From the NCBI GenBank assembly GCA_018645005.1, contig JABGPJ010000073.1, positions 8,274 to 72,273 on the forward strand: a stretch of 64,000 nt of DNA, written 5' to 3'. The translations under genes were made by a program, and so were the position numbers. Numbering within the stretch: the stretch's first letter is position 1; each line of letters starts with the position of its first letter. The notes below the pieces were generated by a model. That model ran no database searches. It worked only from the letters and a program-made list of their open reading frames with translations, and was not told where the DNA came from. Below are positions 3,792-64,000 of the stretch, piece after piece. This DNA comes from Deltaproteobacteria bacterium (GTDB taxonomy: Bacteria; SAR324; XYD2-FULL-50-16).

Positions 3792-4754
3792 CTACTTGAT
3801 AACTTTATCGGCTTTTTGAATCAAGGATTGGGGTACGGTCACGCCCATCGCTTTAGCAGCGCTTAAATTTAAATGTAAAAGAAGCTGATCCTGTGTTTCC
3901 ACGGGGGTTGTCGCAGGATTCGCGCCCTCAAGAATCTTTTTGGCCATTACGCCGGTCTGGTATCCATGTTTGTAATAGTCGAATCCCATGGCGGCGACGG
4001 CACCTCTGGGAACCGAAGCCACGTCAGCAGCAAAGATCGGTAACTGGTTTTGCCTGCCGACCTTGACAGCAGATTCAAACGCAGAGACAACGGTATTATC
4101 AGTTGGGATGTACGCGGCTTCTGCTCTGCCCACCAAGCTTTTGGCTGCCTGGTATACTTCACTTGATTTGGATGCAGTGGCTTCTACAACCTGGAAACCC
4201 ATTTCAGAACCTTGCTTCTTGATCATTTTAACCAGTACTTTGGAGTTGGCTTCTCCGGAATTGTAAATGACGCCCAGTTTTTTAAGCTTTGGAAAAAATG
4301 TTCTCAACATCGTCATATGTTTTTTGATGGGCAGCAGATCCGAAACCCCGGTGATATTTTTGCCTGGTTTTTCCCAGCTTTTGACCAATCCGGCTGAAAC
4401 AGGGTCAGTGACTGCGGTAAAAAGCAAGGTCCGCTGCAGGTTCTTGGGGGCTTTTTTTAGCGCCTGTGCACATGCCTGAGCTGTGGGAGTGGCGATTGCC
4501 AGAATCAGGTCCGGCTTTTCGCCTAAAATCTGCTGGGCAATCTGATTGGCTGTCCCCATATTTGCCTGGGCATTATGCACTTTATAGTCAACATCTACGT
4601 TTTGAGCTTTCAAGGAATCCTGAAATCCTTTCAATACAGCATCTAACGCTGGATGTTCAACAAACTGATTGACTGAAATGCGATAGGTTTTGGCTTGAAC
4701 GCTGACAGATAGACACAGACTTAAACCGATCAGTGCGGCAAATAATTTTTTCAT
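3792..4754 (-). CDS. ABC transporter periplasmic substrate-binding protein (COG2984-like)
   Basis: The track ORF runs to 4847, but the ATG at 4754 gives a clean signal peptide, MKKLFAALIGLSLCLSVSVQA. The rest resembles the BMP/uncharacterised-ABC binding-protein family. Confidence 0.85.
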   Translation of the reverse strand: MKKLFAALIGLSLCLSVSVQAKTYRISVNQFVEHPALDAVLKGFQDSLKAQNVDVDYKVHNAQANMGTANQIAQQILGEKPDLILAIATPTAQACAQALKKAPKNLQRTLLFTAVTDPVSAGLVKSWEKPGKNITGVSDLLPIKKHMTMLRTFFPKLKKLGVIYNSGEANSKVLVKMIKKQGSEMGFQVVEATASKSSEVYQAAKSLVGRAEAAYIPTDNTVVSAFESAVKVGRQNQLPIFAADVASVPRGAVAAMGFDYYKHGYQTGVMAKKILEGANPATTPVETQDQLLLHLNLSAAKAMGVTVPQSLIQKADKVIK

Positions 4755-5007
4755 ATAATCCCTTATATTTTGAGTGTTTCTGTTGATAAGAACATACGGA
4801 TTCCAAAAACGGGAGAAGCCCGCAATTTCTTTGGAATCGAAAATCATTGAAAAAAAATCCCCTTGGAAAGCATCTAGATTTTACCAAAAAATGCCTAAAA
4901 GCAACTCTATTTTACTCCAAATTCTGATTCTGATTCATGGAGCGCCTGTTTCATTGTCGCTTTTTTCCATCCGTTGGGATTTGTTATTTCCAATCGATGA
5001 TGATTTA

Positions 5008-5487
5008 TCAGGTTTCTGCTTTTTTGTCAGCCTCAACAAATCGGGTCATGAGGTGATTAAAAAAACGGACACAGGTGCCCTCATAGAGCTTGTCTTCCCG
5101 GAATCTTTCAGGCTCCCCGGGCTTGCTGAAATCGCACTGGATCAGTGTCTGGCAATCCGAATATTTGAAATTGTCTATGAAATCCCGGTATAAGTCATTC
5201 ACCTCTGCGATTGCTTTTTCGCGTTGCGACTTCTCTTCGAGGGGGACACAGCTGAGGCCTTTGCCGTGACGGAGTCCAATGGCGATGCTGCTGCCAATCA
5301 ACAGGCCACAAGTTGTTTTTCCAGTATTGATAGCGCCGGAATAGCCGGCAGATGCCCAGGAATAGCCTTTGCGGTCGGGGTCCCAGATTTCCTGCAGTCC
5401 CTGCAGGGTCGCTTCTGCTCAGGTGCCTTCTTGAAATGTCTTAAAGGCTCTTTTGATCACGTCGGCATAAAATTGATCGTCTCTCAT
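5008..5487 (-). CDS. C_GCAxxG_C_C family protein, candidate selenoprotein (in-frame TGA at 5419-5421 read as Sec)
   Basis: The ATG at 5487 is preceded by GAGGAG 4 nt upstream. The frame is continuous to the stop at 5008 except for one TGA. The product is MRDDQFYADVIKRAFKTFQEGT-U-AEATLQGLQEIWDPDRKGYSWASAGYSGAINTGKTTCGLLIGSSIAIG... The TGA aligns with the first conserved Cys of the family. A hairpin lies 11 nt downstream of the TGA. Confidence 0.7.
5391..5407 (-). promoter_or_regulatory. Bacterial SECIS-like stem-loop
   Basis: The minus-strand RNA is CCUGCAG-GGA-CUGCAGG, a perfect 7-bp stem with a G-rich apical loop. The loop begins 18 nt after the UGA. Confidence 0.55.
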
Positions 5488-5531
5488 ATTGCTCCTCTTA
5501 GTTGAGATTGTGGGTTGTTGAACAATTGAAG

Positions 5532-6119
5532 CTATTTCAGTGTCTGGTAGGAATCGATTGCCAGAATATTGCAACCATCTGAAAAACCGGCTGGTGGAAT
5601 GCCCAAGGCTTGAATAAGCCTGGCCCAGTAGTTGACCTGCGCAATAGTTGTCGCCAGAACGACGATCTCTCTTTCATCAAATGCAATTTTTAGTTTTCTG
5701 ATGAATTGTTCCGAAAAAACAATGGGTGTTTGAGAAATCAAGCGAACATACTCCAGCGCGGTCTTTTCCCTTTCATTCAGCGAGTCCACTTCAGTAAATG
5801 GCTTAATATCTCTCAGTGCCAGAATTTCCTCTTCGGATATGCTCTGCCCCGCATAATCGAGCCCATTCATATCAATACAAAAGGGGCAGGAGACGACAAA
5901 TGATGTTTGCATCCGCACCAGTTTTAATAAACGCTGGGAGATAGTTTTATCCTTGTGAACAACCAGTGCTTCCAGAATACCAGAGCCAAAGGCGGATTTG
6001 GGAACCCATGAGATCAGTCGGGCGGGGAGCATTTTCTTGCCGGTACTTTTTTCTGCAACCCAGATACCCAGCCTTAGTAGCAACGGAATGCGGTGTGGTG
6101 GTTTAATATAGCCGTTCAT
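5532..6119 (-). CDS. Carboxymuconolactone decarboxylase / AhpD-like family protein with a CxxC motif
   Basis: VVSCPFCIDMNGL is a CxxC motif in an AhpD/CMD-like context. The ATG lies 6 nt after the fliQ stop, and GAGGCAGG overlaps that stop, which suggests translational coupling. Confidence 0.8.
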   Translation of the reverse strand: MNGYIKPPHRIPLLLRLGIWVAEKSTGKKMLPARLISWVPKSAFGSGILEALVVHKDKTISQRLLKLVRMQTSFVVSCPFCIDMNGLDYAGQSISEEEILALRDIKPFTEVDSLNEREKTALEYVRLISQTPIVFSEQFIRKLKIAFDEREIVVLATTIAQVNYWARLIQALGIPPAGFSDGCNILAIDSYQTLK

Positions 6120-6125
6120 CCTGCC

Positions 6126-6401
6126 TCAGCCCAGACCGACATAAAATGTAATACTACTGAGTGTCTTTTCCATAAATTGGGCAGCGGTGCTGATGAACCA
6201 GGGTAGGAATAGGATCAGCAGAACCACGACACCCACCATTTTGGGAATTATGGCCAGTGTCATTTCCTGGATCTGGGTTACCGCCTGAAATATAGATACA
6301 GCCAATCCAAGGACCAGCGCTGTGATCAGCAGGGGTGCTGATAGTTTGACCGCAGTGGTGATCGCTTCAGTTGCAAATGAAACAACAAATTCGGGTGTCA
6401 T
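6126..6401 (-). CDS. fliQ: Flagellar/T3SS export apparatus protein FliQ
   Basis: MTPEFVVSFATEAI...APLLITALVLGLAVSIFQAVTQIQEMTLAIIPK aligns closely along its whole length with enterobacterial FliQ. Confidence 0.93.
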   Translation of the reverse strand: MTPEFVVSFATEAITTAVKLSAPLLITALVLGLAVSIFQAVTQIQEMTLAIIPKMVGVVVLLILFLPWFISTAAQFMEKTLSSITFYVGLG

Positions 6402-6492
6402 CTTTTACTCCTACGCTGATATTTAACGCCTTCAGTTGGCGGTGATTGCCGTGGCGACTACTGGTCTATCCGATTTATTTCGGGTTTGTGGC

Positions 6493-6597
6493 TTAGGGAT
6501 CGTACAAAAATAACTTGGCATAATCTGTCCGCAAAAGTCCCGTAAAGATTGGACATTTTGCAGACAAAATGCCAAGTAATTTTTGAGCCGACCCTTA
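6493..6597 (+). repeat. Palindromic MITE/REP-like repeat, copy 1 (in the fliP-fliQ spacer)
   Basis: (tta)GGGATCGTACAAAAATAACTTGGCAT...GGACATTTTGCAGACAAAATGCCAAGTAATTTTTGAGCCGACCC(tta). It is near-identical to 11337-11479 and related to 23790-23894 in inverted orientation. Internal and terminal inverted repeats are present. Confidence 0.8.
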
Positions 6598-7356
6598 ACC
6601 GGTAAAGCTTTTTACCAGTGATGCGGTGATGAGATACCATCCATCGACCAGCACAAACAACATAATTTTAAACGGTAACGATATCATGATAGGCGGCAGC
6701 ATCATCATACCCATCGACATCAGGACCGAAGATACCACCATGTCGATAACCAGAAATGGTATATAGATTATGAACCCCATCTGAAAAGCGGTTTTCAACT
6801 CGCTGATAACAAAAGCCGGTATCACGACATAGAGAGGTACTTCTTTGTAATTTTTAGGTTGTTTTAGTTTGGCAATCCGCAAAAAAAGAGCCAGATCCTT
6901 CGGACGGGTAAAATGACCCATCCACTTTTTTATGGGTTCACCCGCCCTTTCGAAAGCAACTTCCTGTCCGATTTGTTTATCGAAGTAGGGTTTCAGGGCC
7001 TGATCATAAACCTGTGTCCAGGGATCGGCCATGATAAAAAAAGTCAGAAACATGGCGAAACCGAGCAGGACCTGATTGGGTGGTGACTGCTGCGTTCCCA
7101 GAGCGTTGCGGATAAAAGAGAGGACAATGATGATCCGGGTGAATGATGTGGTCATGATTAGAATTGCAGGCGCCAGAGATAATATGGTCAACATCGCGAT
7201 AATTTGCAATGTTGAGGCGACCTGATCCGGGTTGGACGATTGTCCGATTTCCAGATTAAAGCTGGGGATTGGAACTGTTTGCGCAATTGCGCTGGATCCC
7301 ATCAGCAATCCCGGGATCATGAAAAAGACAATTCGAAAAAACATGTTCGATTTCAT
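6595..7356 (-). CDS. fliP: Flagellar/T3SS export apparatus protein FliP
   Basis: Signal peptide followed by LTILSLAPAILIMTTSFTRIIIVLSFIRNALGTQQSPPNQVL and C-terminal DGWYLITASLVKSF, matching canonical FliP. Confidence 0.93.
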   Translation of the reverse strand: MKSNMFFRIVFFMIPGLLMGSSAIAQTVPIPSFNLEIGQSSNPDQVASTLQIIAMLTILSLAPAILIMTTSFTRIIIVLSFIRNALGTQQSPPNQVLLGFAMFLTFFIMADPWTQVYDQALKPYFDKQIGQEVAFERAGEPIKKWMGHFTRPKDLALFLRIAKLKQPKNYKEVPLYVVIPAFVISELKTAFQMGFIIYIPFLVIDMVVSSVLMSMGMMMLPPIMISLPFKIMLFVLVDGWYLITASLVKSFTG

Positions 7357-19187: not shown

Positions 19188-19604
19188 TCAGGCAATCCCT
19201 TTTCCCGATGTCGTTGTCACGAGTTTGCCATGCTTGACACCCTTGGTTCCGATCAATTCGTTGGATATTTTTTTTATCAGCGAAGGTTTGCCTTTAACGA
19301 TTACCACTTCCAGGCAATGATGGGCATCGATGTGGACATGAAGGGTTGAAATGATCTGCTTTGTGTGAGCATGTTGATGTTCGATCAGTTTGTCTGACAG
19401 TTCTCTTGTGTGATGGTCATATACCAGCGTAATAGTCCCAAACGTTTCCTCATTTCCATGCTCCCACTGCTCTTCGACCAGCGTATTTCGAATCAGATCA
19501 CGAATAGCCTCTGACCGGTTGACATAACCCTTTTTCGAAATTAACTGATCAAAACGTGTCAAGAGCCGTTTATCGATAGACATGCCAAAACGAATCGTGT
19601 TCAT
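19188..19604 (-). CDS. nikR: Nickel-responsive regulator NikR
   Basis: ATG at 19604 (the track ORF starts further upstream at a TTG). The ribbon-helix-helix reads [35 protein letters not shown]. The C-terminal nickel site has the pattern H-x-H-x5-C ([13 protein letters not shown]). Confidence 0.88.
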
Positions 19605-19803
19605 ACTTGTACCTTTGGGTGTTTTTAGATAGCAAAACAAGTGAAATTTCTGATTTTACTTCCCAATAGGTGTACCTTTTACAACTCTAATGGTCAACGC
19701 CTATCCATCTGGAACAAAGGGGATTCGATTGTTGGCACGCTGTCCGCGATTTCTCTTGCGGCTCTCCGGTATGGTAGACACCGTTCCTGAAAAAGAACCC
19801 TTA

Positions 19804-19832
19804 TTGACATAACAGTTTCTATTTTTTATGGT
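19804..19832 (+). promoter_or_regulatory. Sigma-70-type promoter candidate for the nickel transporter operon
   Basis: TTGACA (19804-19809), a 17-nt spacer, then TATGGT (19827-19832). It lies immediately upstream of the NikR-box candidate. Confidence 0.5.
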
Positions 19833-19836
19833 TTAG

Positions 19837-19863
19837 TTGTTACATATTTGAGATTTGTGACAC
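19837..19863. promoter_or_regulatory. Candidate NikR operator (inverted repeat ttGTTAC-N13-GTGACAC)
   Basis: Each half-site matches 6/7 of the GTGTTAC-N13/14-GTAACAC consensus that I recall from published comparative genomics of non-enterobacterial NikR sites. It lies between divergent nikR and cbiM, just after the -10 box. Confidence 0.5.
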
Positions 19864-20005
19864 GCTAGAATAGAAACAAGGATTGGTTCCCACCAGGGCT
19901 GTTTTCATTTTAAGAGGGATAACGTTGTGGGGGTTATCGGATGTGCATGTTTCAGGCACATTGGAAGTCGAAACAGCTCTCGAAAATTTGAATGAGATCA
20001 AATTA

Positions 20006-20629
20006 ATGCATATTTCAGAGGGTGTCTTACCTGTATCCATACTGGTAGGCGGCGCAGTGATAGCTGTTACCGGAACTGCCATAGGTTTGAGGCGACTTGA
20101 CTATAACCGGATTCCACAGGCGGGGGTTCTGGCAGCGTCTTTTTTCGTGGCATCGCTCATTCATGTCCCTCTTGGTGTATCGAGCGTTCATCTCATACTG
20201 AACGGACTGGTGGGCATGATGCTGGGTTGGGGCGCATTCCCGGTGATCATGATCGCGCTGATTCTGCAAGCTGTTTTTTTTCAGTTCGGAGGGTTTACCA
20301 CATTGGGTGTCAATACCGTAGTCATGGCACTACCTGCTGTGCTGGTATCTTTTGCTTTCCATCCGCTTAAAAGGAAAAACGCCTCTGTTGTAACGGTTAT
20401 ATCTTTTTTATGCGGATTTTTTTCAGTCCTGTTCGCGGCTCTGATGATGGGCTTTGCATTTTTTCTGATAGGTGAGGCATTTTTCGAAGTGGGGACGTTT
20501 GTGGTGATCTCACATCTGCCGGTGATGATTATTGAGGGTATCATCACGGTGTTTTGTATCCGTTTTCTGATGAAGGTTCAGCCTTCCATGTTATACGTAA
20601 AGAAGGGGGTCATAAATGCCCGCAGTTAG
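20006..20629 (+). CDS. cbiM: ECF transporter substrate-capture component CbiM/NikM
   Basis: The ATG at 20006 gives the canonical N-terminus MHISEGVLP (metal-ligating Met1/His2), followed by multiple TM helices. The track ORF starts further upstream at 19883. Confidence 0.88.
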   Translation: MHISEGVLPVSILVGGAVIAVTGTAIGLRRLDYNRIPQAGVLAASFFVASLIHVPLGVSSVHLILNGLVGMMLGWGAFPVIMIALILQAVFFQFGGFTTLGVNTVVMALPAVLVSFAFHPLKRKNASVVTVISFLCGFFSVLFAALMMGFAFFLIGEAFFEVGTFVVISHLPVMIIEGIITVFCIRFLMKVQPSMLYVKKGVINARS

Positions 20630-21239
20630 TCATATCGGTCTATTTCGGATGAACATAAAAGATATGCTGGTTCGGGGGACATTGGTCTTAATTTGCTGTC
20701 TGTCTTTTTCAGGTTCCGCCTTAGCGCACCGTGTGATTATATTTGGTTGGGTCGAAGGCGACCGAGTGATGACACAAAGCAAGTTCAGCAGCAACCGGGT
20801 TGTTAAAGGCGGTGAAATTTCAGTTTATGATTCCACAGAGAATCGCATTCTGACCGGAAAAACAGACAAGCAGGGCGAATATTCTTTTCAAATTCCGGTT
20901 CAGGAGAGACTTAAAATTGTTTTATCAACTGCGGGGGGGCATCAGGCTGATTGGACGATTACCAAAAAGGAACTAGAATCCGCTAGCCATTTGAGTGATG
21001 ACCTTCCCCAGACTCAAATGCATGAACCGGTACCGGGGGACTGTCAGAAAGAGACAGGTGCCGCTGTGATTGAAAAGATGTTGGACAGCAAATTGAGACC
21101 CATCATGCGGCATATTGCTGAAGCAAATCAAAAGCAGGTGTCCCTGCGTGATATTCTCGGTGGCATTGGCTACATCATAGGATTGGCAGGTCTGGCTGCT
21201 TATATGCGGTATCGCGGAAAAGAGAAGCAGGGATCATGA
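20616..21239 (+). CDS. Auxiliary nickel/cobalt ECF component in the CbiN/NikL position: signal peptide, beta-sandwich periplasmic domain and a C-terminal TM anchor
   Basis: GAAGGGGG Shine-Dalgarno before the ATG at 20616. The signal peptide ends in ALA-HRV. The segment VKGGEISVYDSTENRILTGKTDKQGEYSFQIP is a CarboxypepD_reg/transthyretin-like motif. A C-terminal TM helix reads ILGGIGYIIGLAGLAAYM. The gene overlaps both cbiM and cbiQ. Confidence 0.55.
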   Translation: MPAVSHIGLFRMNIKDMLVRGTLVLICCLSFSGSALAHRVIIFGWVEGDRVMTQSKFSSNRVVKGGEISVYDSTENRILTGKTDKQGEYSFQIPVQERLKIVLSTAGGHQADWTITKKELESASHLSDDLPQTQMHEPVPGDCQKETGAAVIEKMLDSKLRPIMRHIAEANQKQVSLRDILGGIGYIIGLAGLAAYMRYRGKEKQGS

Positions 21240-21994
21240 TAGAGTCGTCCTTTGTCGATGGAAATTCATTGATTCACCGTCTGGACCCTCGATTCAGAGT
21301 CGCGATGGCTATCGGGATTTCTGTTTTTATTGCCCTCGCCGACAGGTTCCCGACGCTGCTCATCAGCCTGTTGCTGTCTTTGGTACTGGTTGCACTAGCT
21401 CGTTTAGGGACTATGCGTGTGTTCAGAAGACTGGTGGTAGTCAACGGCATGGTTCTGGTTTTCTGGTTGATCCTGCCGTTAACTGTAGCGGGCGATGCGA
21501 TTCTTAATCTGGGACCGATCCTGCTGACTAAAGCCGGAGTTTTGCTGGCAGCAAGACTGACGCTTAAATCTAATGGTATTATACTGGCTCTGATTGCTTT
21601 GATGGCGACCTGTCCGGTGACGGCCATCGGGTATGCGATGAAGAGTTTGTGGATCCCCGAAAAAATCGTTTATCTTTTTCTGATCACCTATCGTTATATT
21701 TTCGTTTTAGAGCAGGAGTACCAGCGGTTGATGATGGCCGCAAAAATAAGGTGCTTTCGACCCGGGAACAATCTGCACACCTACCGTACGTTTGCCTATC
21801 TGATCGGAATGCTTTTTGTCCGGGCCTCTTTAAGAGGGGAGCGGGTCTATCAGGCTATGTGTTGTCGCGGTTTTAACGGCCGGTTTTACCTACTCTATGA
21901 ATTCAGAGCCTCCTGGGTGGACTGGATTTTTCTGACCGCTTTGTCTTTGGTAATTTTATTATTAGGGTTTATGGAATGGGGAATGGTCCTTTGA
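21236..21994 (+). CDS. cbiQ: ECF transporter transmembrane (T) component CbiQ
   Basis: N-terminal ...SLIHRLDPRFRV and a multi-TM body, in the operon position between the M/N-like genes and the ATPase. Confidence 0.8.
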   Translation: MIESSFVDGNSLIHRLDPRFRVAMAIGISVFIALADRFPTLLISLLLSLVLVALARLGTMRVFRRLVVVNGMVLVFWLILPLTVAGDAILNLGPILLTKAGVLLAARLTLKSNGIILALIALMATCPVTAIGYAMKSLWIPEKIVYLFLITYRYIFVLEQEYQRLMMAAKIRCFRPGNNLHTYRTFAYLIGMLFVRASLRGERVYQAMCCRGFNGRFYLLYEFRASWVDWIFLTALSLVILLLGFMEWGMVL

Positions 21995-22713
21995 TCATGG
22001 ATTTAAAAGACATCTGTTATGCCTATCACGGTGTCGACGATGTGCTCAGTCATGTCAATTTTTCTTTGCATGCAGATGAAAGAATGGGTTTGATTGGCGG
22101 GAACGGGAGTGGCAAATCGACATTTCTGCATATTATCATCGGCATTTTACGAGCTCATTCAGGTGAGATGACGATTTTCGGGGAGAGGGTCCGGACAGAG
22201 CAGGACTTTTTCCGCGTCAGGCAAAGGGTTGGCTTGCTGTTTCAAAATTCCGATGATCAGCTCTTTTCGCCGACGGTATTAGAGGACGTTGCTTTCGGTC
22301 CGCTGAACCTGGGTAAAGAGCCAGAGGAGGCGTGCGAGATTGCCAGGCAGACATTGACGGATTTACACCTCAGCGGTTTTGAAGATCGGGTGACCCATAC
22401 CCTATCCGGTGGAGAAAAAAAACTGGTGGCATTGGCCACTATCTTAGCCATGCAACCGGAAATTCTGCTTCTGGACGAACCAACATCGGGTCTGGATGAA
22501 AGCACCAAGAACAGGCTCACTGAAATTTTAGGCAGCCTGGCGATCAGCTATATCATTGTCTCCCATGAATATGAATTTTTGATTTCCAATACCGATACGA
22601 TCTACGGCATGAAAAACGGTATCCTGAAGTATCATGGTGATTCCTCTTCTCTTCACAGCCATTATCACAGCCATCCAGCCGGAGAAGTCTCTCATCAGCA
22701 TTCGGACACTTAG
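21976..22713 (+). CDS. cbiO: ECF transporter ATPase CbiO with a His-rich C-terminal tail
   Basis: Walker A GGNGSGKST, signature LSGGEKK and Walker B LLLDEPTSGLD. An alternative start ATG at 21997 (MDLKDICYAY) lies just after the cbiQ stop. The tail reads LHSHYHSHPAGEVSHQHSDT. Confidence 0.88.
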   Translation: MGNGPLIMDLKDICYAYHGVDDVLSHVNFSLHADERMGLIGGNGSGKSTFLHIIIGILRAHSGEMTIFGERVRTEQDFFRVRQRVGLLFQNSDDQLFSPTVLEDVAFGPLNLGKEPEEACEIARQTLTDLHLSGFEDRVTHTLSGGEKKLVALATILAMQPEILLLDEPTSGLDESTKNRLTEILGSLAISYIIVSHEYEFLISNTDTIYGMKNGILKYHGDSSSLHSHYHSHPAGEVSHQHSDT

Positions 22714-26224: not shown

Positions 26225-26453
26225 TCAGGCAATGTGGTGAATAGTTACGGTTACTTTTACGATTCCATATCTTATAAGTCGATGTGGAAGGTAGAATCCG
26301 GTAACATTTTTATTGAGTTATTGATTGATATCTATCTTTTCGTTATTGCCCGTATTTTTTTGTGAGCAGTTTTTATTATCATGAAGGGTAGCTTGATGAA
26401 AAAAAACTGATTCACCCGTTGAATTAAAAACCCAAATCCTAATCAGAGGTATT

Positions 26454-26645
26454 ATGGCTAAAGAACTATTTGTTGATAAAGAAGAGTGCACAAGCTGCGC
26501 ACAGTGCACCGATGATCTACCAGACGTTTTCAAAATGGATGATGATGACTTAGCTGAAGTGCACAATTCAGAAGGTGCGTCTGAAGATGAAATCCAGGAA
26601 GAAATTGACGCATGTCCAGGTGAATGCATCCATTGGAAGGAATAG
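26454..26645 (+). CDS. Small single-cluster ferredoxin
   Basis: 63-aa acidic protein with CTSCAQC...DACPGEC, the CxxCxxC...CP cluster-binding pattern. Confidence 0.8.
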   Translation: MAKELFVDKEECTSCAQCTDDLPDVFKMDDDDLAEVHNSEGASEDEIQEEIDACPGECIHWKE

Positions 26646-29595: not shown

Positions 29596-31353
29596 ATGGT
29601 GTACCAAGAACTGATTGTCAATAACCTGGACCGCATTCTGGATTTCTGGCTATTGATAGATGACAAGGGAAAGGTCATACATTGTAGCCAGCTGATATAC
29701 CGTCAGCTGGGTTACAGCGAAGAGGAGGTCATCAATCAGCCTTTCCAGATTTTTTTTCCAGAGGACGATCCTGCCAGTTCGGATTTCCTTTACCAGCTGC
29801 TCTTTGACAGCTATGCCGGATCTGTGGTCAATCAGAAATCACGCATCAAACAAAAAAATGGTGTCATCATCGATATCGAGCTTTCTCTTTATCAACTGGA
29901 TAATGATGAAATGTATTTCCTGATCGTCTTTAACAATATTACAGAGGTTGTGGAGATCAGGAAGAAGATCAAATTAAAAAGTGAAAAGCTTAACGGAGAG
30001 TTCGATCTATTTGATGATCGCAACAATTACGAATCCGTCCAGGACTTTATCGATACTATTCTGGTCTCAATTACGGCCGGGCAGGGTTTGCGCTTTAATC
30101 GCGCCTTTCTTTTTCTGGTTGAAGAAGAAGAACAGATCTTAAAGGGGATTCAGGCAATCGGTCCCGGTTCCGGTGACGAGGCGGGGGTAATATATGGCGA
30201 GTTTGGCTCGGCGCCCAAAACCCTCAATGAGATGATCAAGCACTATAGGCACATGATTGGCACTGACAGTGCTGTAAACAGTATTTTGAAAGATGTGCAG
30301 ATTAAGCTGTCCGATTATCAGAATATCCTCATCAATGCGCTAAACGGCCAGAAATACATACTGATTAATGAAGATTACCCCTTGATCGACGATCCCAGTG
30401 TTGTCTGGTTGAGGGAGCTGTTCCAGGTTCATGAGTGTGCCATCATTCCTCTGCTTTGGCATGGTCGTTCAACCGGTGTCATTGTTGTGGACAATCAGGT
30501 GACCCAGTCCCGAATTACGATGCACGATATCAAAGGAATCACAAGTTATGCTGAAAGAGCAACGAACGCTCTTGAATCTTCAAAACTGTTGATTAGTCTT
30601 GAAAAAAATATCAATCTGGTAAAACAAGCAAATCTAAAAATCCGCGAAAGCCAGGAGATTCTGGTTCAAAAGGAAAAGCTGGCCGTGATGGGTGAAATGG
30701 TCGCCCATATGGCTCACGAGGTTAGAGGACCGCTTGCCACTATCGGAGGTTATGCGTCAAGGGTCTTCAAACAAATGGATGAATCCGATGGCCACCATAA
30801 TTCAATGTCCCGCATCGTCGAAACTGTCAGGACTCTGGAATTGGTGATTAATGACATCCTGGACGTCTCACTGCCAGAACCGGAGAATTCAAGGGGTTGT
30901 GATTGCGCCAAGGCTATAAACAAGGTATTAAGTTTACTGGAAGAAGAGATCCACGTCAGAAAGGTGTCAGTCAGTATGAATATTCAGGGGAGTCTGCCTG
31001 AAATAAAAATACAGGAACATCATCTATTTGAAATTATAAGTAATATTGTTAGAAATGCACTGGAATCTATCGACATTGATGGTTTACTACTGGTGTTGGC
31101 AAGTCATATTGAAGACCAGGTTGTTATCACTATTCAGGATACGGGTCCTGGTATCCCACCGGAGATCAAAAACAAAATTTTTTCTCCGTTTTTTACAACA
31201 AAGGAGGATGGTACGGGTCTTGGACTCGTAGTCGTGAAAAAACTTGTGGAAGAAAACAACGGCGCTATTGTGGTGCGCACTGCTCCGGATAAGGGAACAA
31301 CCTTTATTATTTCTTTCCCAATCGAGCACAAAGGAGTTACCCATGACGGATGA
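29596..31353 (+). CDS. PAS-GAF sensor histidine kinase
   Basis: An N-terminal PAS-like domain, a GAF-like middle region, a HisKA H-box (VAHMAHEVRGPLATI) and a HATPase_c domain with N, G1 (QDTGPGI) and G2 (GTGLGL) boxes. Confidence 0.85.
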   Translation: MVYQELIVNNLDRILDFWLLIDDKGKVIHCSQLIYRQLGYSEEEVINQPFQIFFPEDDPASSDFLYQLLFDSYAGSVVNQKSRIKQKNGVIIDIELSLYQLDNDEMYFLIVFNNITEVVEIRKKIKLKSEKLNGEFDLFDDRNNYESVQDFIDTILVSITAGQGLRFNRAFLFLVEEEEQILKGIQAIGPGSGDEAGVIYGEFGSAPKTLNEMIKHYRHMIGTDSAVNSILKDVQIKLSDYQNILINALNGQKYILINEDYPLIDDPSVVWLRELFQVHECAIIPLLWHGRSTGVIVVDNQVTQSRITMHDIKGITSYAERATNALESSKLLISLEKNINLVKQANLKIRESQEILVQKEKLAVMGEMVAHMAHEVRGPLATIGGYASRVFKQMDESDGHHNSMSRIVETVRTLELVINDILDVSLPEPENSRGCDCAKAINKVLSLLEEEIHVRKVSVSMNIQGSLPEIKIQEHHLFEIISNIVRNALESIDIDGLLLVLASHIEDQVVITIQDTGPGIPPEIKNKIFSPFFTTKEDGTGLGLVVVKKLVEENNGAIVVRTAPDKGTTFIISFPIEHKGVTHDG

Positions 31354-31702
31354 TAAAAGAATACTGGTCATTGATGATGATGTACATATGAGAGAATTGC
31401 TCGAGCTTGAGTTCACCGATCTGGGTTATCAGGTGACCACTGCCGACAACGCATTTTTAGGTTTGCAAAGCCTCAAAGATGAAATGGTGGATCTGGTCAT
31501 TCTGGATATCAAAATGCCTGGGATGAATGGTATTGAAGCATTGGAAAAAATCGTCAGTACCAAGAGGGAGCTCCCGGTAATAATACATAGCGCCTATAGT
31601 CACTTCAGGGAGAATTATCTGACATGGAGTGCTGTGGCTTATGTAATCAAAAGTGGTAATTTGGACGAACTGATTCAAACCGTTAAAAATCATATGAAAT
31701 AA
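31343..31702 (+). CDS. Single-domain (CheY-like) response regulator
   Basis: ATG at 31343 with AAGGAG upstream (the track ORF starts earlier, inside the kinase gene). ILVIDDD...DLVILDIKMPGMNG is a receiver domain. Confidence 0.85.
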   Translation: MTDDKRILVIDDDVHMRELLELEFTDLGYQVTTADNAFLGLQSLKDEMVDLVILDIKMPGMNGIEALEKIVSTKRELPVIIHSAYSHFRENYLTWSAVAYVIKSGNLDELIQTVKNHMK

Positions 31703-62283: not shown

Positions 62284-64000
62284 ATGCTCAGTTATTTGAA
62301 AAAGAAAATCGTGGGGTCGTTCTCTGATCGGGAATTAAAAAAGTATTATCCCTTTTTACAAAAAATAAACGATCTTGAAAGCGATTTTAAGAATCTCAGC
62401 CAAACTGAATGTATTGCAAAAGCTGAAGATTTAAAGTCGAGGGCGAAAAATGGAGCCGAACTGGATGACCTTCTTCCGGAAACTTTTGCGCTGGTTCGAA
62501 AGGCGTCTATAGAGACACTGGGAGAGCGACATTTCGATGTTCAATTACTCGGTGGAATCGCACTCCACCGAGGTGAAATAGCTGAAATGAAAACCGGTGA
62601 AGGGAAAACGCTGACTGCGACTTTACCGCTGGTTCTGAACGCTCTCTCAGGGAAAGGGGCACATGTTGTGACGGTCAATGACTATCTGGCCGAACGTGAT
62701 TCAAAATGGATGGGGGAGATCTTTCAGTATCTGGGAATGACCGTGGGGGTCATCAAACACGGGTTGACTGATGAGGAGCGGAGAGACGCATATGCCGCTG
62801 ACATTACGTACGGAACTAATAACGAATATGGTTTTGACTATCTGCGTGATAATATGAAGTTCGACTTGAAGGACTATGTGCAGCGTGATCACCATTATGC
62901 AATTGTCGACGAGGTTGACAGTATTCTAATCGATGAGGCCCGGACCCCGCTGATCATTTCTGGTCTTGCGGCCGGATCCACGGAAAACTATCACATCATT
63001 GATCGGGAAATGTATGGTCTGACCCGTGAATGGCGAGTGAGCGACAGTCCCGAACCGGAACTCGTCGCCAAACTCCATGAGATTGAAATCAATGAGGTCA
63101 AGAACTTTTTACGGAATCATGAGGATCTGGATGTTATTATCCCCGGAGACTACACCCTTGAGGAAAAATCGCGCAATATTCAGCTGGCCGAATCCGGTAT
63201 AGAAAAAATGCAGACTCGACTGACCGGAATATTGAAAACACCCAACCTGTTTGATTTTGAAAACATTGAGTTTTTGCATCACGTCAATCAGGCATTGAAG
63301 GCGCAGTATGTTTTTAAGCGGGATATCGATTATGTGGTTCAGGAAGGCAAGGTCTTGATTGTTGATGAATTCACCGGCCGGATTATGGAGGGACGCCGTT
63401 TCAGTGATGGGTTGCACCAGGCACTGGAAGCTAAAGAACGGGTCCGAATTGAAAAGGAGAATCAAACACTTGCCTCAATTACATTTCAGAACTATTTCCG
63501 CAAATATGAAAAACTGGCGGGTATGACGGGTACGGCTGAAACAGAAGCGGATGAGTTCATGAAAATATACAACCTGGGCGTGGTTGTGATTCCGACGAAT
63601 AAGCCCATGATTCGCCAGGATCACGCGGATGTTATCTATAAGACCGCAGCGGCAAAAAAACGTGCGATCTTGAGCCAGATTCAGGATGTGTTTAGTAAAA
63701 AACAACCGGTGCTTGTTGGAACCGCTTCCATTGAAAGTTCTGAAGTTCTCAGCCGGATGTTGGACAAAAATAAAATTCCCCACAAAGTCCTCAACGCCAA
63801 ATTCCATGATCAGGAAGCAGAAATCATCGCTAAGGCAGGCCAGCCGGGCTCTGTAACCATCGCGACCAATATGGCCGGTCGGGGGACCGACATAAAACTG
63901 GGAGAAGCGATTGTCAATAAAGGCGGACTTTTTATTCTGGGTACGGAGCGAAACGAATCTCGTCGGGTGGATAACCAGTTGCGTGGACGTTCCGGCCGTC
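62284..64000 (+). CDS. secA: Preprotein translocase ATPase SecA (3' end beyond the window)
   Basis: This ORF is absent from the ORF track because there is no stop within the window. Translation from the ATG at 62284 gives [21 protein letters not shown]...[15 protein letters not shown]...[11 protein letters not shown]...[21 protein letters not shown]...[20 protein letters not shown], a textbook SecA. Confidence 0.95.

Follow-up and report, generated by a model that had tools for sequence, protein, structure and literature searches.

We analyzed a 64,000-nt stretch of contig JABGPJ010000073.1 (hereafter, the window) from a SAR324-related deltaproteobacterial genome (GCA_018645005.1) and conclude that positions 5487-5008 of its minus strand very probably constitute one gene, which encodes a 159-residue selenoprotein of the C_GCAxxG_C_C family and in which an in-frame UGA is read as selenocysteine (Sec). 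The complete coding sequence (CDS) of this predicted selenoprotein, delimited by its translation, the PF09719 domain and homologues, starts with ATG at 5487-5485, 4 nt downstream of a Shine-Dalgarno-like GAGGAG (5497-5492) that was read directly from the sequence, and ends with TGA at 5010-5008, directly followed by TAA (to 5005). The sole interruption of the 159-codon frame is the TGA at 5421-5419, the proposed Sec codon for residue 23, which aligns with Cys in homologues; 22 codons precede it and 136 come after, and the 159-residue product reads MRDDQFYADVIKRAFKTFQEGT-U-AEATLQGLQEIWD.... The implied N-terminus, M[KR]DD..., agrees with the N-termini of full-length homologues. Comparative data define, downstream of the UGA, a hairpin of the Sec insertion sequence (SECIS) type, CCUGCAG-GGA-CUGCAGG, at 5407-5391; it begins 11 nt past the UGA (spacer 5418-5408), and its conserved core consists of a 6-bp stem (5406-5401 paired with 5397-5392) and the loop GGA (5400-5398), all on the minus strand. 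An earlier note, made from the sequence alone, had described the ATG at 5487, the GAGGAG, the single TGA and the 7-bp stem with its spacer, and our reading and translation reproduced all of these coordinates. Its observation that the mechanical list of open reading frames (ORFs) covers the joined frame only at 5008-5301 was likewise correct: for this gene, the list gives the 97-aa piece at 5008-5301, with a TTG start, and otherwise only a piece of 51 aa at 5419-5574.

The joined protein, scored with U written as C, matches PF09719 (C_GCAxxG_C_C) at 42.9 bits against a gathering score of 27, with residues 22-145 aligned to profile positions 2-110 of 118, whereas the 97-aa ORF by itself scores 18 bits and stays under the gathering score, which bears out the family membership proposed in the earlier note. 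Substitution of Ala or Trp for residue 23 lowers the match to 37.6 or 37.1 bits, a cost of 5.3-5.8 bits relative to Cys, and shifts the beginning of the alignment to residue 24 and profile position 4 instead of position 2. Because of these shifts in score and alignment, residue 23 is assigned to a column of conserved Cys where the domain begins. The possibility, raised in the same note, that the domain begins at 5301 with no Cys aligned to the UGA is not what we find, since the PF09719 domain starts at residue 22. The residue-23 column contains Cys in full-length homologues; together with the 5.3-bit gain and the TGT or TGC codons found in 18 loci (see below), this supports the placement of the UGA on the first conserved Cys of the family. 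The two later Cys residues of the family are also retained, as C112 and C139, neither of which varies in alignments of 24 and of 40 sequences. The central Cys (C60) is invariant, with the subfamily consensus at this site being TTCGLLIG and not GCAxxG. We also observed that His73 of the window protein (GLR-H-GKG) is aligned to Cys (GLR-C-GQG) in many homologues.

A search of a collection of 5.8 billion proteins yielded 102 homologues of the selenoprotein. Of the full-length proteins among them, 35 have Cys opposite the UGA codon and four have 'W', while 54 are shorter calls (about 126-135 aa) with the truncation before the conserved Trp, most of which begin at [M/L]QGLQ just after it, the Leu of this start being a codon inside the SECIS stem. 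For example, the metagenome-assembled genome (MAG) GCA_018697355.1 in NCBI (JABHTM010000017.1) calls a 132-aa product (L057, 10714-11112). The DNA of one of the 'W' forms, P0007, has TGA at the codon and a compensated stem; thus, the 'W' forms in the databases represent TGA read with another genetic code. To survey the codon itself, we used one genome per GTDB species, which gave 55 loci, in 51 of which the aligned codon was located. It is TGA in 33 loci and TGT or TGC in 18, so that Sec-type and Cys-type orthologues, for which the earlier note had suggested looking, both exist; with the window included, TGA is present in 34 of 52 sequences, and neither TAA nor TAG occurs at this codon in the 51 loci or the window. 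All 33 TGA loci are bacterial and belong to Desulfobacteraceae, Syntrophales/Syntrophaceae, one MAG of Acidobacteriota and unclassified 'bacterium' MAGs, the latter including the two closest relatives of the window gene (L001 and L002). The Cys loci are archaeal in 17 cases out of 18 (Heimdall-, Hod-, Hermod-, Thor- and Promethearchaeota, and Bathyarchaeia; 37-48% identity), and the remaining one comes from a deltaproteobacterium. This bacterial-Sec/archaeal-Cys split suggests that the gene may have moved between domains, with Sec changed into Cys or vice versa.

The TGA codon itself is reliable. Although only one base separates TGA from TGC or TGT, an assembly or sequencing error at this site has a practically negligible probability: three independent assemblies (JGI 3300022912, NCBI GCA_018697355.1 with contig JABHTM010000017.1, and ENA ERZ4200966) carry the gene with 483 of 483 nt identical, TGA included, which refutes a misread TGC or TGT, and TGA occupies the same site in 33 other loci. 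In addition, the AhpD-like protein encoded next to the selenoprotein is found on contigs from many samples.

Whether this TGA might be a true stop was weighed against the coding properties of its flanks. Under such a reading, the locus would encode a 22-residue leader followed by a re-initiated shorter protein, or would be a decaying pseudogene; gene callers do start a 132-aa product at a CTG within the hairpin, or a 97-aa product at TTG 5301, and the Sec machinery is not seen in the 64-kb window. We consider it extremely unlikely, because the Pfam domain starts at residue 22, ahead of the TGA, and the 97-aa piece does not reach the gathering score. Protein-level conservation extends over the 22 codons upstream of the TGA position in both the TGA and the Cys groups (...[AS]Y[KT]RMH[RL]YT-U/C-AEA...) across loci that are 37-71% identical overall, with synonymous differences between the closest relatives, and the 136 downstream codons are likewise conserved among the Cys forms and the 33 further TGA loci. 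The interrupting codon is TGA in 34 of 34 sequences and never TAA or TAG, and reading the minus strand between 4800 and 6200 revealed no ribosome-binding site before the internal starts of the selenoprotein gene. Moreover, a decaying pseudogene would not keep the covarying hairpin described in the following paragraphs.

The proposed SECIS in the window pairs perfectly over 7 bp around a 3-nt loop and has a folding energy of -9.7 kcal/mol when folded alone. Of the 1305 TGA triplets on the minus strand, 15 (1.1%) are followed at 5-20 nt by the start of an equally perfect 7-bp hairpin, which gives the chance level, and the evidence for the hairpin from the window alone is only moderate. It is the comparative data that provide the decisive evidence for the predicted Sec decoding. 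The 6-bp stem YUGCAR-GGN-YUGCAR is complete in 34 of 34 TGA forms and in 0 of 18 Cys forms, and its individual positions are paired in 204 of 204 cases in the former vs. 53 of 108 in the latter. The TGA forms encode AEA-x-LQGLQ, with the LQGLQ portion spelled YUG-CAR-GGN-YUG-CAR, and the hairpin of the window spans the codons T-L-Q-G-L-Q-E. The Cys forms mostly encode LQALL, and the loop Gly (GGN), invariant in the Sec forms, is replaced by Ala (GCN) in 17 of 18 Cys loci, a change that abolishes the GG of the loop. The most telling single case for an RNA-level constraint is P0009, a bacterial Cys form with TGT (L059, 1073-1200), which has kept the LQGLQ peptide but spells it TTA-CAA-GGA-TTA-CAA and has lost the central G-C pairs. 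Since the Cys forms lose the stem either by synonymous codons or by the Gly-to-Ala replacement, the LQGLQ peptide appears to be largely a by-product of the SECIS. Over the 42 nt that follow the codon, the minimum free energy averages -13.4 kcal/mol in the Sec forms and -7.3 kcal/mol in the Cys forms (Mann-Whitney p = 1.8e-5).

Covariation within the TGA group was analyzed in an alignment of 32 distinct TGA sequences. Columns 19-33 pair as CG in 21 sequences, UA in 9 and UG in 2, and columns 24-28 as GC in 18, AU in 12 and GU in 2, neither pair ever being broken. The covariation score is 0.221 compared to a shuffled mean of 0.129, with 0 of 500 shuffles reaching 0.221; the controls in which the partner strand was slid are paired at 24-37% vs. 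80.9%, and RNAalifold predicts the identical stem. The stem contains four variable positions, all of them synonymous, and 7 of the 16 possible haplotypes occur, all seven of which keep the pairing. The occurrence of mixed haplotypes, C-A-T-G (4 sequences) and T-G-C-A (2 sequences), excludes a simple effect of GC content or composition. These comparisons show RNA-level selection on the predicted hairpin.

The position of the hairpin was compared with that in the Escherichia coli fdhF SECIS, the reference bacterial element, whose sequence is found at 100% identity within the annotated fdhF gene of 5419 E. coli genomes out of 5426. Both elements are located directly 3' of the UGA inside the CDS and have an apical UGCA/UGCA stem. 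In fdhF, the UGA and the subsequent 18 nt are followed by GGUC, and in the window by GGA, such that the loop G residues are nt 22-23 in both when counted from the U of the UGA; the earlier note had placed a G-containing loop about 18 nt from the UGA, and this geometry is borne out. Its description of the hairpin as SECIS-like also stands, as the hairpin is present in all TGA forms and in none of the Cys forms, covaries, and has its loop at an fdhF-like distance. The two elements differ in size and loop: the fdhF SECIS is a stem-loop of about 40 nt with the loop GGUC, whereas the window hairpin has 6-7 bp and a 3-nt GGN loop, without a bulged U or a long lower stem, and the third loop base is free in hairpins of the window type. 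The E. coli SelB protein requires G23 and U24, and a minimal upper hairpin suffices.

An alternative explanation for the conserved TGA is read-through that does not involve selenium, either because a suppressor or near-cognate tRNA delivers Trp, Cys or Arg while the hairpin stimulates read-through generically, or because the code is reassigned and UGA stands for Trp or Gly. We regard it as very unlikely, even though the codon appears as W in some database translations and the hairpin is small, with an unconstrained third loop base. Among the ORFs of at least 200 aa in the window, 18 of 43 end in TGA, which is the commonest stop, and the ORFs called with genetic code table 11 are intact; thus, TGA is an ordinary stop in the window and the UGA code is not reassigned. 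Furthermore, it is specifically Cys that homologues have opposite this codon, the signature pattern of Sec, the hairpin position fits the SelB-type geometry of fdhF, and the family has recognised Sec members. The TGA forms occur in Desulfobacteraceae and Syntrophales, lineages known from the literature to be rich in selenoproteins (PMC9312934).

Several observations weigh against Sec decoding. In the window sequence itself, local folding over 56 nt does no better than that of shuffled sequences (z = -0.07), and Rfam reports no SECIS or other credible family, either for the whole window at gathering thresholds or for 5300-5500 at E<=10. The stem is short (6-7 bp), the loop has only 3 nt, and the free third base of GGN contrasts with the G-U that E. 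coli SelB requires. TIGR01909, 'C-GCAxxG-C-C family (seleno)protein', is the second NCBIfam match of the protein, at 29.6 bits and thus below its curated cut-off of 47.4. A tRNA scan of the 64-kb window found no tRNA gene, hence no tRNA-Sec, and SelA, SelB and SelD are missing among the matches of its 48 long ORFs to NCBIfam and Pfam, a span of 64 kb being uninformative on the whole genome. Finally, two incomplete SAR324 single-cell genomes were described as having SelD without other Sec components or selenoprotein genes, i.e., an 'orphan SelD' (PMC5029168, 2016). On the other side, the nearest named relatives come from SAR324 cluster bacteria, namely P0003 for the selenoprotein (75%) and P0108 for the AhpD-like protein (81%), and the TGA, the SECIS and the upstream coding region are all conserved in the window, L001 and L002 at 68-71% protein identity, which argues that the lineage decodes Sec. 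The gene suggests that a widespread, SAR324-like marine bacterium uses selenocysteine.

Sec-containing members of the C_GCAxxG_C_C family are already catalogued, as reflected in the name of TIGR01909, which the homologue P0035 bears in NCBI, and in a 2022 review that lists C-GCAxxG-C-C proteins among the prokaryotic selenoprotein families, citing Zhang and Gladyshev 2008 (PMC9312934). The gene in the window is therefore an added example, previously mis-annotated, in a divergent clade of a known selenoprotein family. It shares with the catalogued (seleno)proteins the domain, the N-terminal Cys/Sec, the central Cys in a Gly-rich motif and the two later Cys residues, as well as, probably, Sec in place of the first Cys and the label 'putative redox-active protein', and it diverges from TIGR01909 both in score and in having TTCGLLIG for GCAxxG. 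WP_012158890.1, the example in the catalogue, is a distinct protein, and the review states no Sec motif for the family. The top NCBIfam match of the window protein is NF045501, 'HUGP/GUXX-star fusion selenoprotein', at 66.6 bits, far below its cut-off of 325, and in N-terminal positions only: window residues 12-157 align to profile positions 12-158 of 236, which makes the N-terminal domain homologous. The protein is not a member of NF045501: it lacks the C-terminal ~80 residues with the GUXX-stop end and has no visible HUGP motif. The N-terminal domain of this two-Sec fusion family seems related to the subfamily found in the window.

In the proposed decoding scheme, the UGA at 5421-5419 would not act as a stop, and a SelB-GTP-Sec-tRNA(Sec) complex would meet the ribosome there while SelB is held by the small SECIS hairpin at 5407-5391 that starts 11 nt downstream. 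Sec would then be inserted at residue 23, and translation would run on to the TGA-TAA at 5010-5005. The predicted SECIS would be written into the CDS as Leu(YUG)-Gln(CAR)-Gly(GGN)-Leu(YUG)-Gln(CAR), and this location inside the CDS explains why the Sec forms have LQGLQ, whereas drift in the Cys forms has led to LQALL or to non-pairing codons.

The function of the protein was addressed by modelling P0009, a Cys homologue that is 50% identical to the window protein and has the same numbering, with AlphaFold2. The model is confident and all-alpha (predicted local distance difference test score 89.3, predicted template modelling score 0.85), with helices starting at 23, 61, 112 and 139, so that the Sec/Cys position, at the N-terminus of helix 2, and C60, C112 and C139 are all located at helix N-termini. 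No solved relative was found by sequence search of the PDB or by Foldseek against the PDB (best E = 6), and a literature search on the C_GCAxxG_C_C family returned incidental mentions only and no functional study. The most likely function would be that of a redox-active selenol (Sec23) working together with at least one invariant thiol; we prefer a redox role because most Sec/Cys pairs mark catalytic redox residues (PMC2398784). The main alternative, rather unlikely, is that Sec23 and the three invariant Cys residues ligate a metal ion or an Fe-S-type cluster instead of forming a selenol/thiol couple. Such a site would agree with the four invariant Cys/Sec positions being the defining pattern of the family and with all four being at helix N-termini in the model (23, 60/61, 112 and 139). 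Helix-N-terminal arrangements are common in metal sites, and Sec ligates Mo/W and Ni in known enzymes. It would be at odds with the usual catalytic redox role of Sec/Cys pairs, with the absence of any metal-binding family among the Pfam and NCBIfam matches of the selenoprotein, and with the lack of a PDB relative. It is doubtful, though conceivable from the model, that in this fold without a solved relative the Sec and three Cys residues converge in a new type of selenium-containing metal or cluster site or in a thiol/selenol relay, the gene being in the same proposal also the first concrete evidence of Sec decoding in a SAR324-related lineage.

The upstream neighbour of the selenoprotein gene, presented here as context only, encodes a 195-aa AhpD/CMD-family protein with a CPFC motif (5532..6119, minus strand). 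It is located 6 nt downstream of fliQ (6126-6401, minus strand), beyond which lies fliP (6595-7356, minus strand), and 44 nt upstream of the selenoprotein gene, its TAG being at 5534-5532; the 44-nt distance agrees with that in the earlier note. The AhpD-like protein has weak NCBIfam matches to a YciW-related (seleno)protein and to a peroxidase-related enzyme, and its 2776 homologues are named alkylhydroperoxidase or CMD family, many of them in other phyla, e.g., Chloroflexota. The AhpD/CMD family itself has Sec members (NCBIfam NF053654; PMC9312934), and the neighbour belongs to the same broad family as the AhpD-like/YciW-like CxxU selenoproteins; however, it represents the CPFC form without an in-frame TGA, and the AhpD-like/CMD fold and family differ from those of the selenoprotein.

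The suggestion that the two proteins form a thiol/selenol redox pair stood only in part: the adjacency is present, but it is conserved only in L001 and L002, where the gene order fliQ, AhpD-like, selenoprotein is kept, and the pairing is a reasonable guess more than a supported inference. The AhpD-like gene was consequently rejected as a family-wide partner, and no neighbour recurs across the subfamily. A promoter and terminator scan of 4700-6700, otherwise uninformative, detected no promoter-like site between fliQ and the AhpD-like gene; the redox genes may be co-transcribed with the flagellar export genes, an odd pairing that is kept in L001 and L002. A different, lineage-specific context was observed in ten Syntrophales loci (L018, L019, L020, L021, L025, L026, L028, L038, L049 and L012), where a conserved Cys-rich protein of about 255 aa (…CKSAGLVEYSRF…ECVGCPPDPHP…) is encoded immediately upstream and an SDR-family oxidoreductase downstream, unlike in the window; both recur in Syntrophales only.

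In the unannotated gaps of the window, no second TGA-interrupted gene was identified; they contain only a small ferredoxin and a CheY-like receiver. The ferredoxin-like protein of about 65 aa (MAKELFVDKEECTSCAQC...CPGECIHWKE) is encoded at about 26450-26642 (plus strand), and the CheY-like receiver of about 120 aa (MTDDKRILVIDDD...) at about 31340-31699 (plus strand), right after a PAS histidine kinase (29596-31353), both being below the ORF-length cut-offs. A brute-force listing of TGA-joined frames in the window was dominated by noise, and no second selenoprotein was taken from it. Elsewhere in the window, a NikR-type regulator (19188-19640, minus strand) is divergent from a cluster encoding CbiM, an unknown 207-aa protein, CbiQ and an ABC-ATPase (19883-22713, plus strand), and we recognize in 19188-22713 an energy-coupling factor-type system for Ni/Co uptake, controlled by a nickel-responsive repressor. 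At 62284-64000 (plus strand), an open frame of 572 or more codons runs past the window end and looks like SecA by its N-terminus and motifs.

These results leave the knowledge of how Sec is decoded unchanged and bear on the annotation and evolution of the family. Public records of the gene contain a truncated 97-132-aa protein without its probable active-site residue, and among the 102 closest homologues in the databases, no fewer than 58 share this annotation error (54 truncated calls and 4 'W' forms). The corrected gene adds to the C_GCAxxG_C_C family a clade in which the predicted Sec of bacteria tracks the Cys of Asgard and Bathyarchaeia archaea. The clade offers an unusually clean natural experiment, where a SECIS internal to the CDS would constrain the protein, and where LQGLQ and the choice of its codons relax once Sec becomes Cys. 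For this uncharacterised family, the gene marks residue 23 as the probable functional centre.

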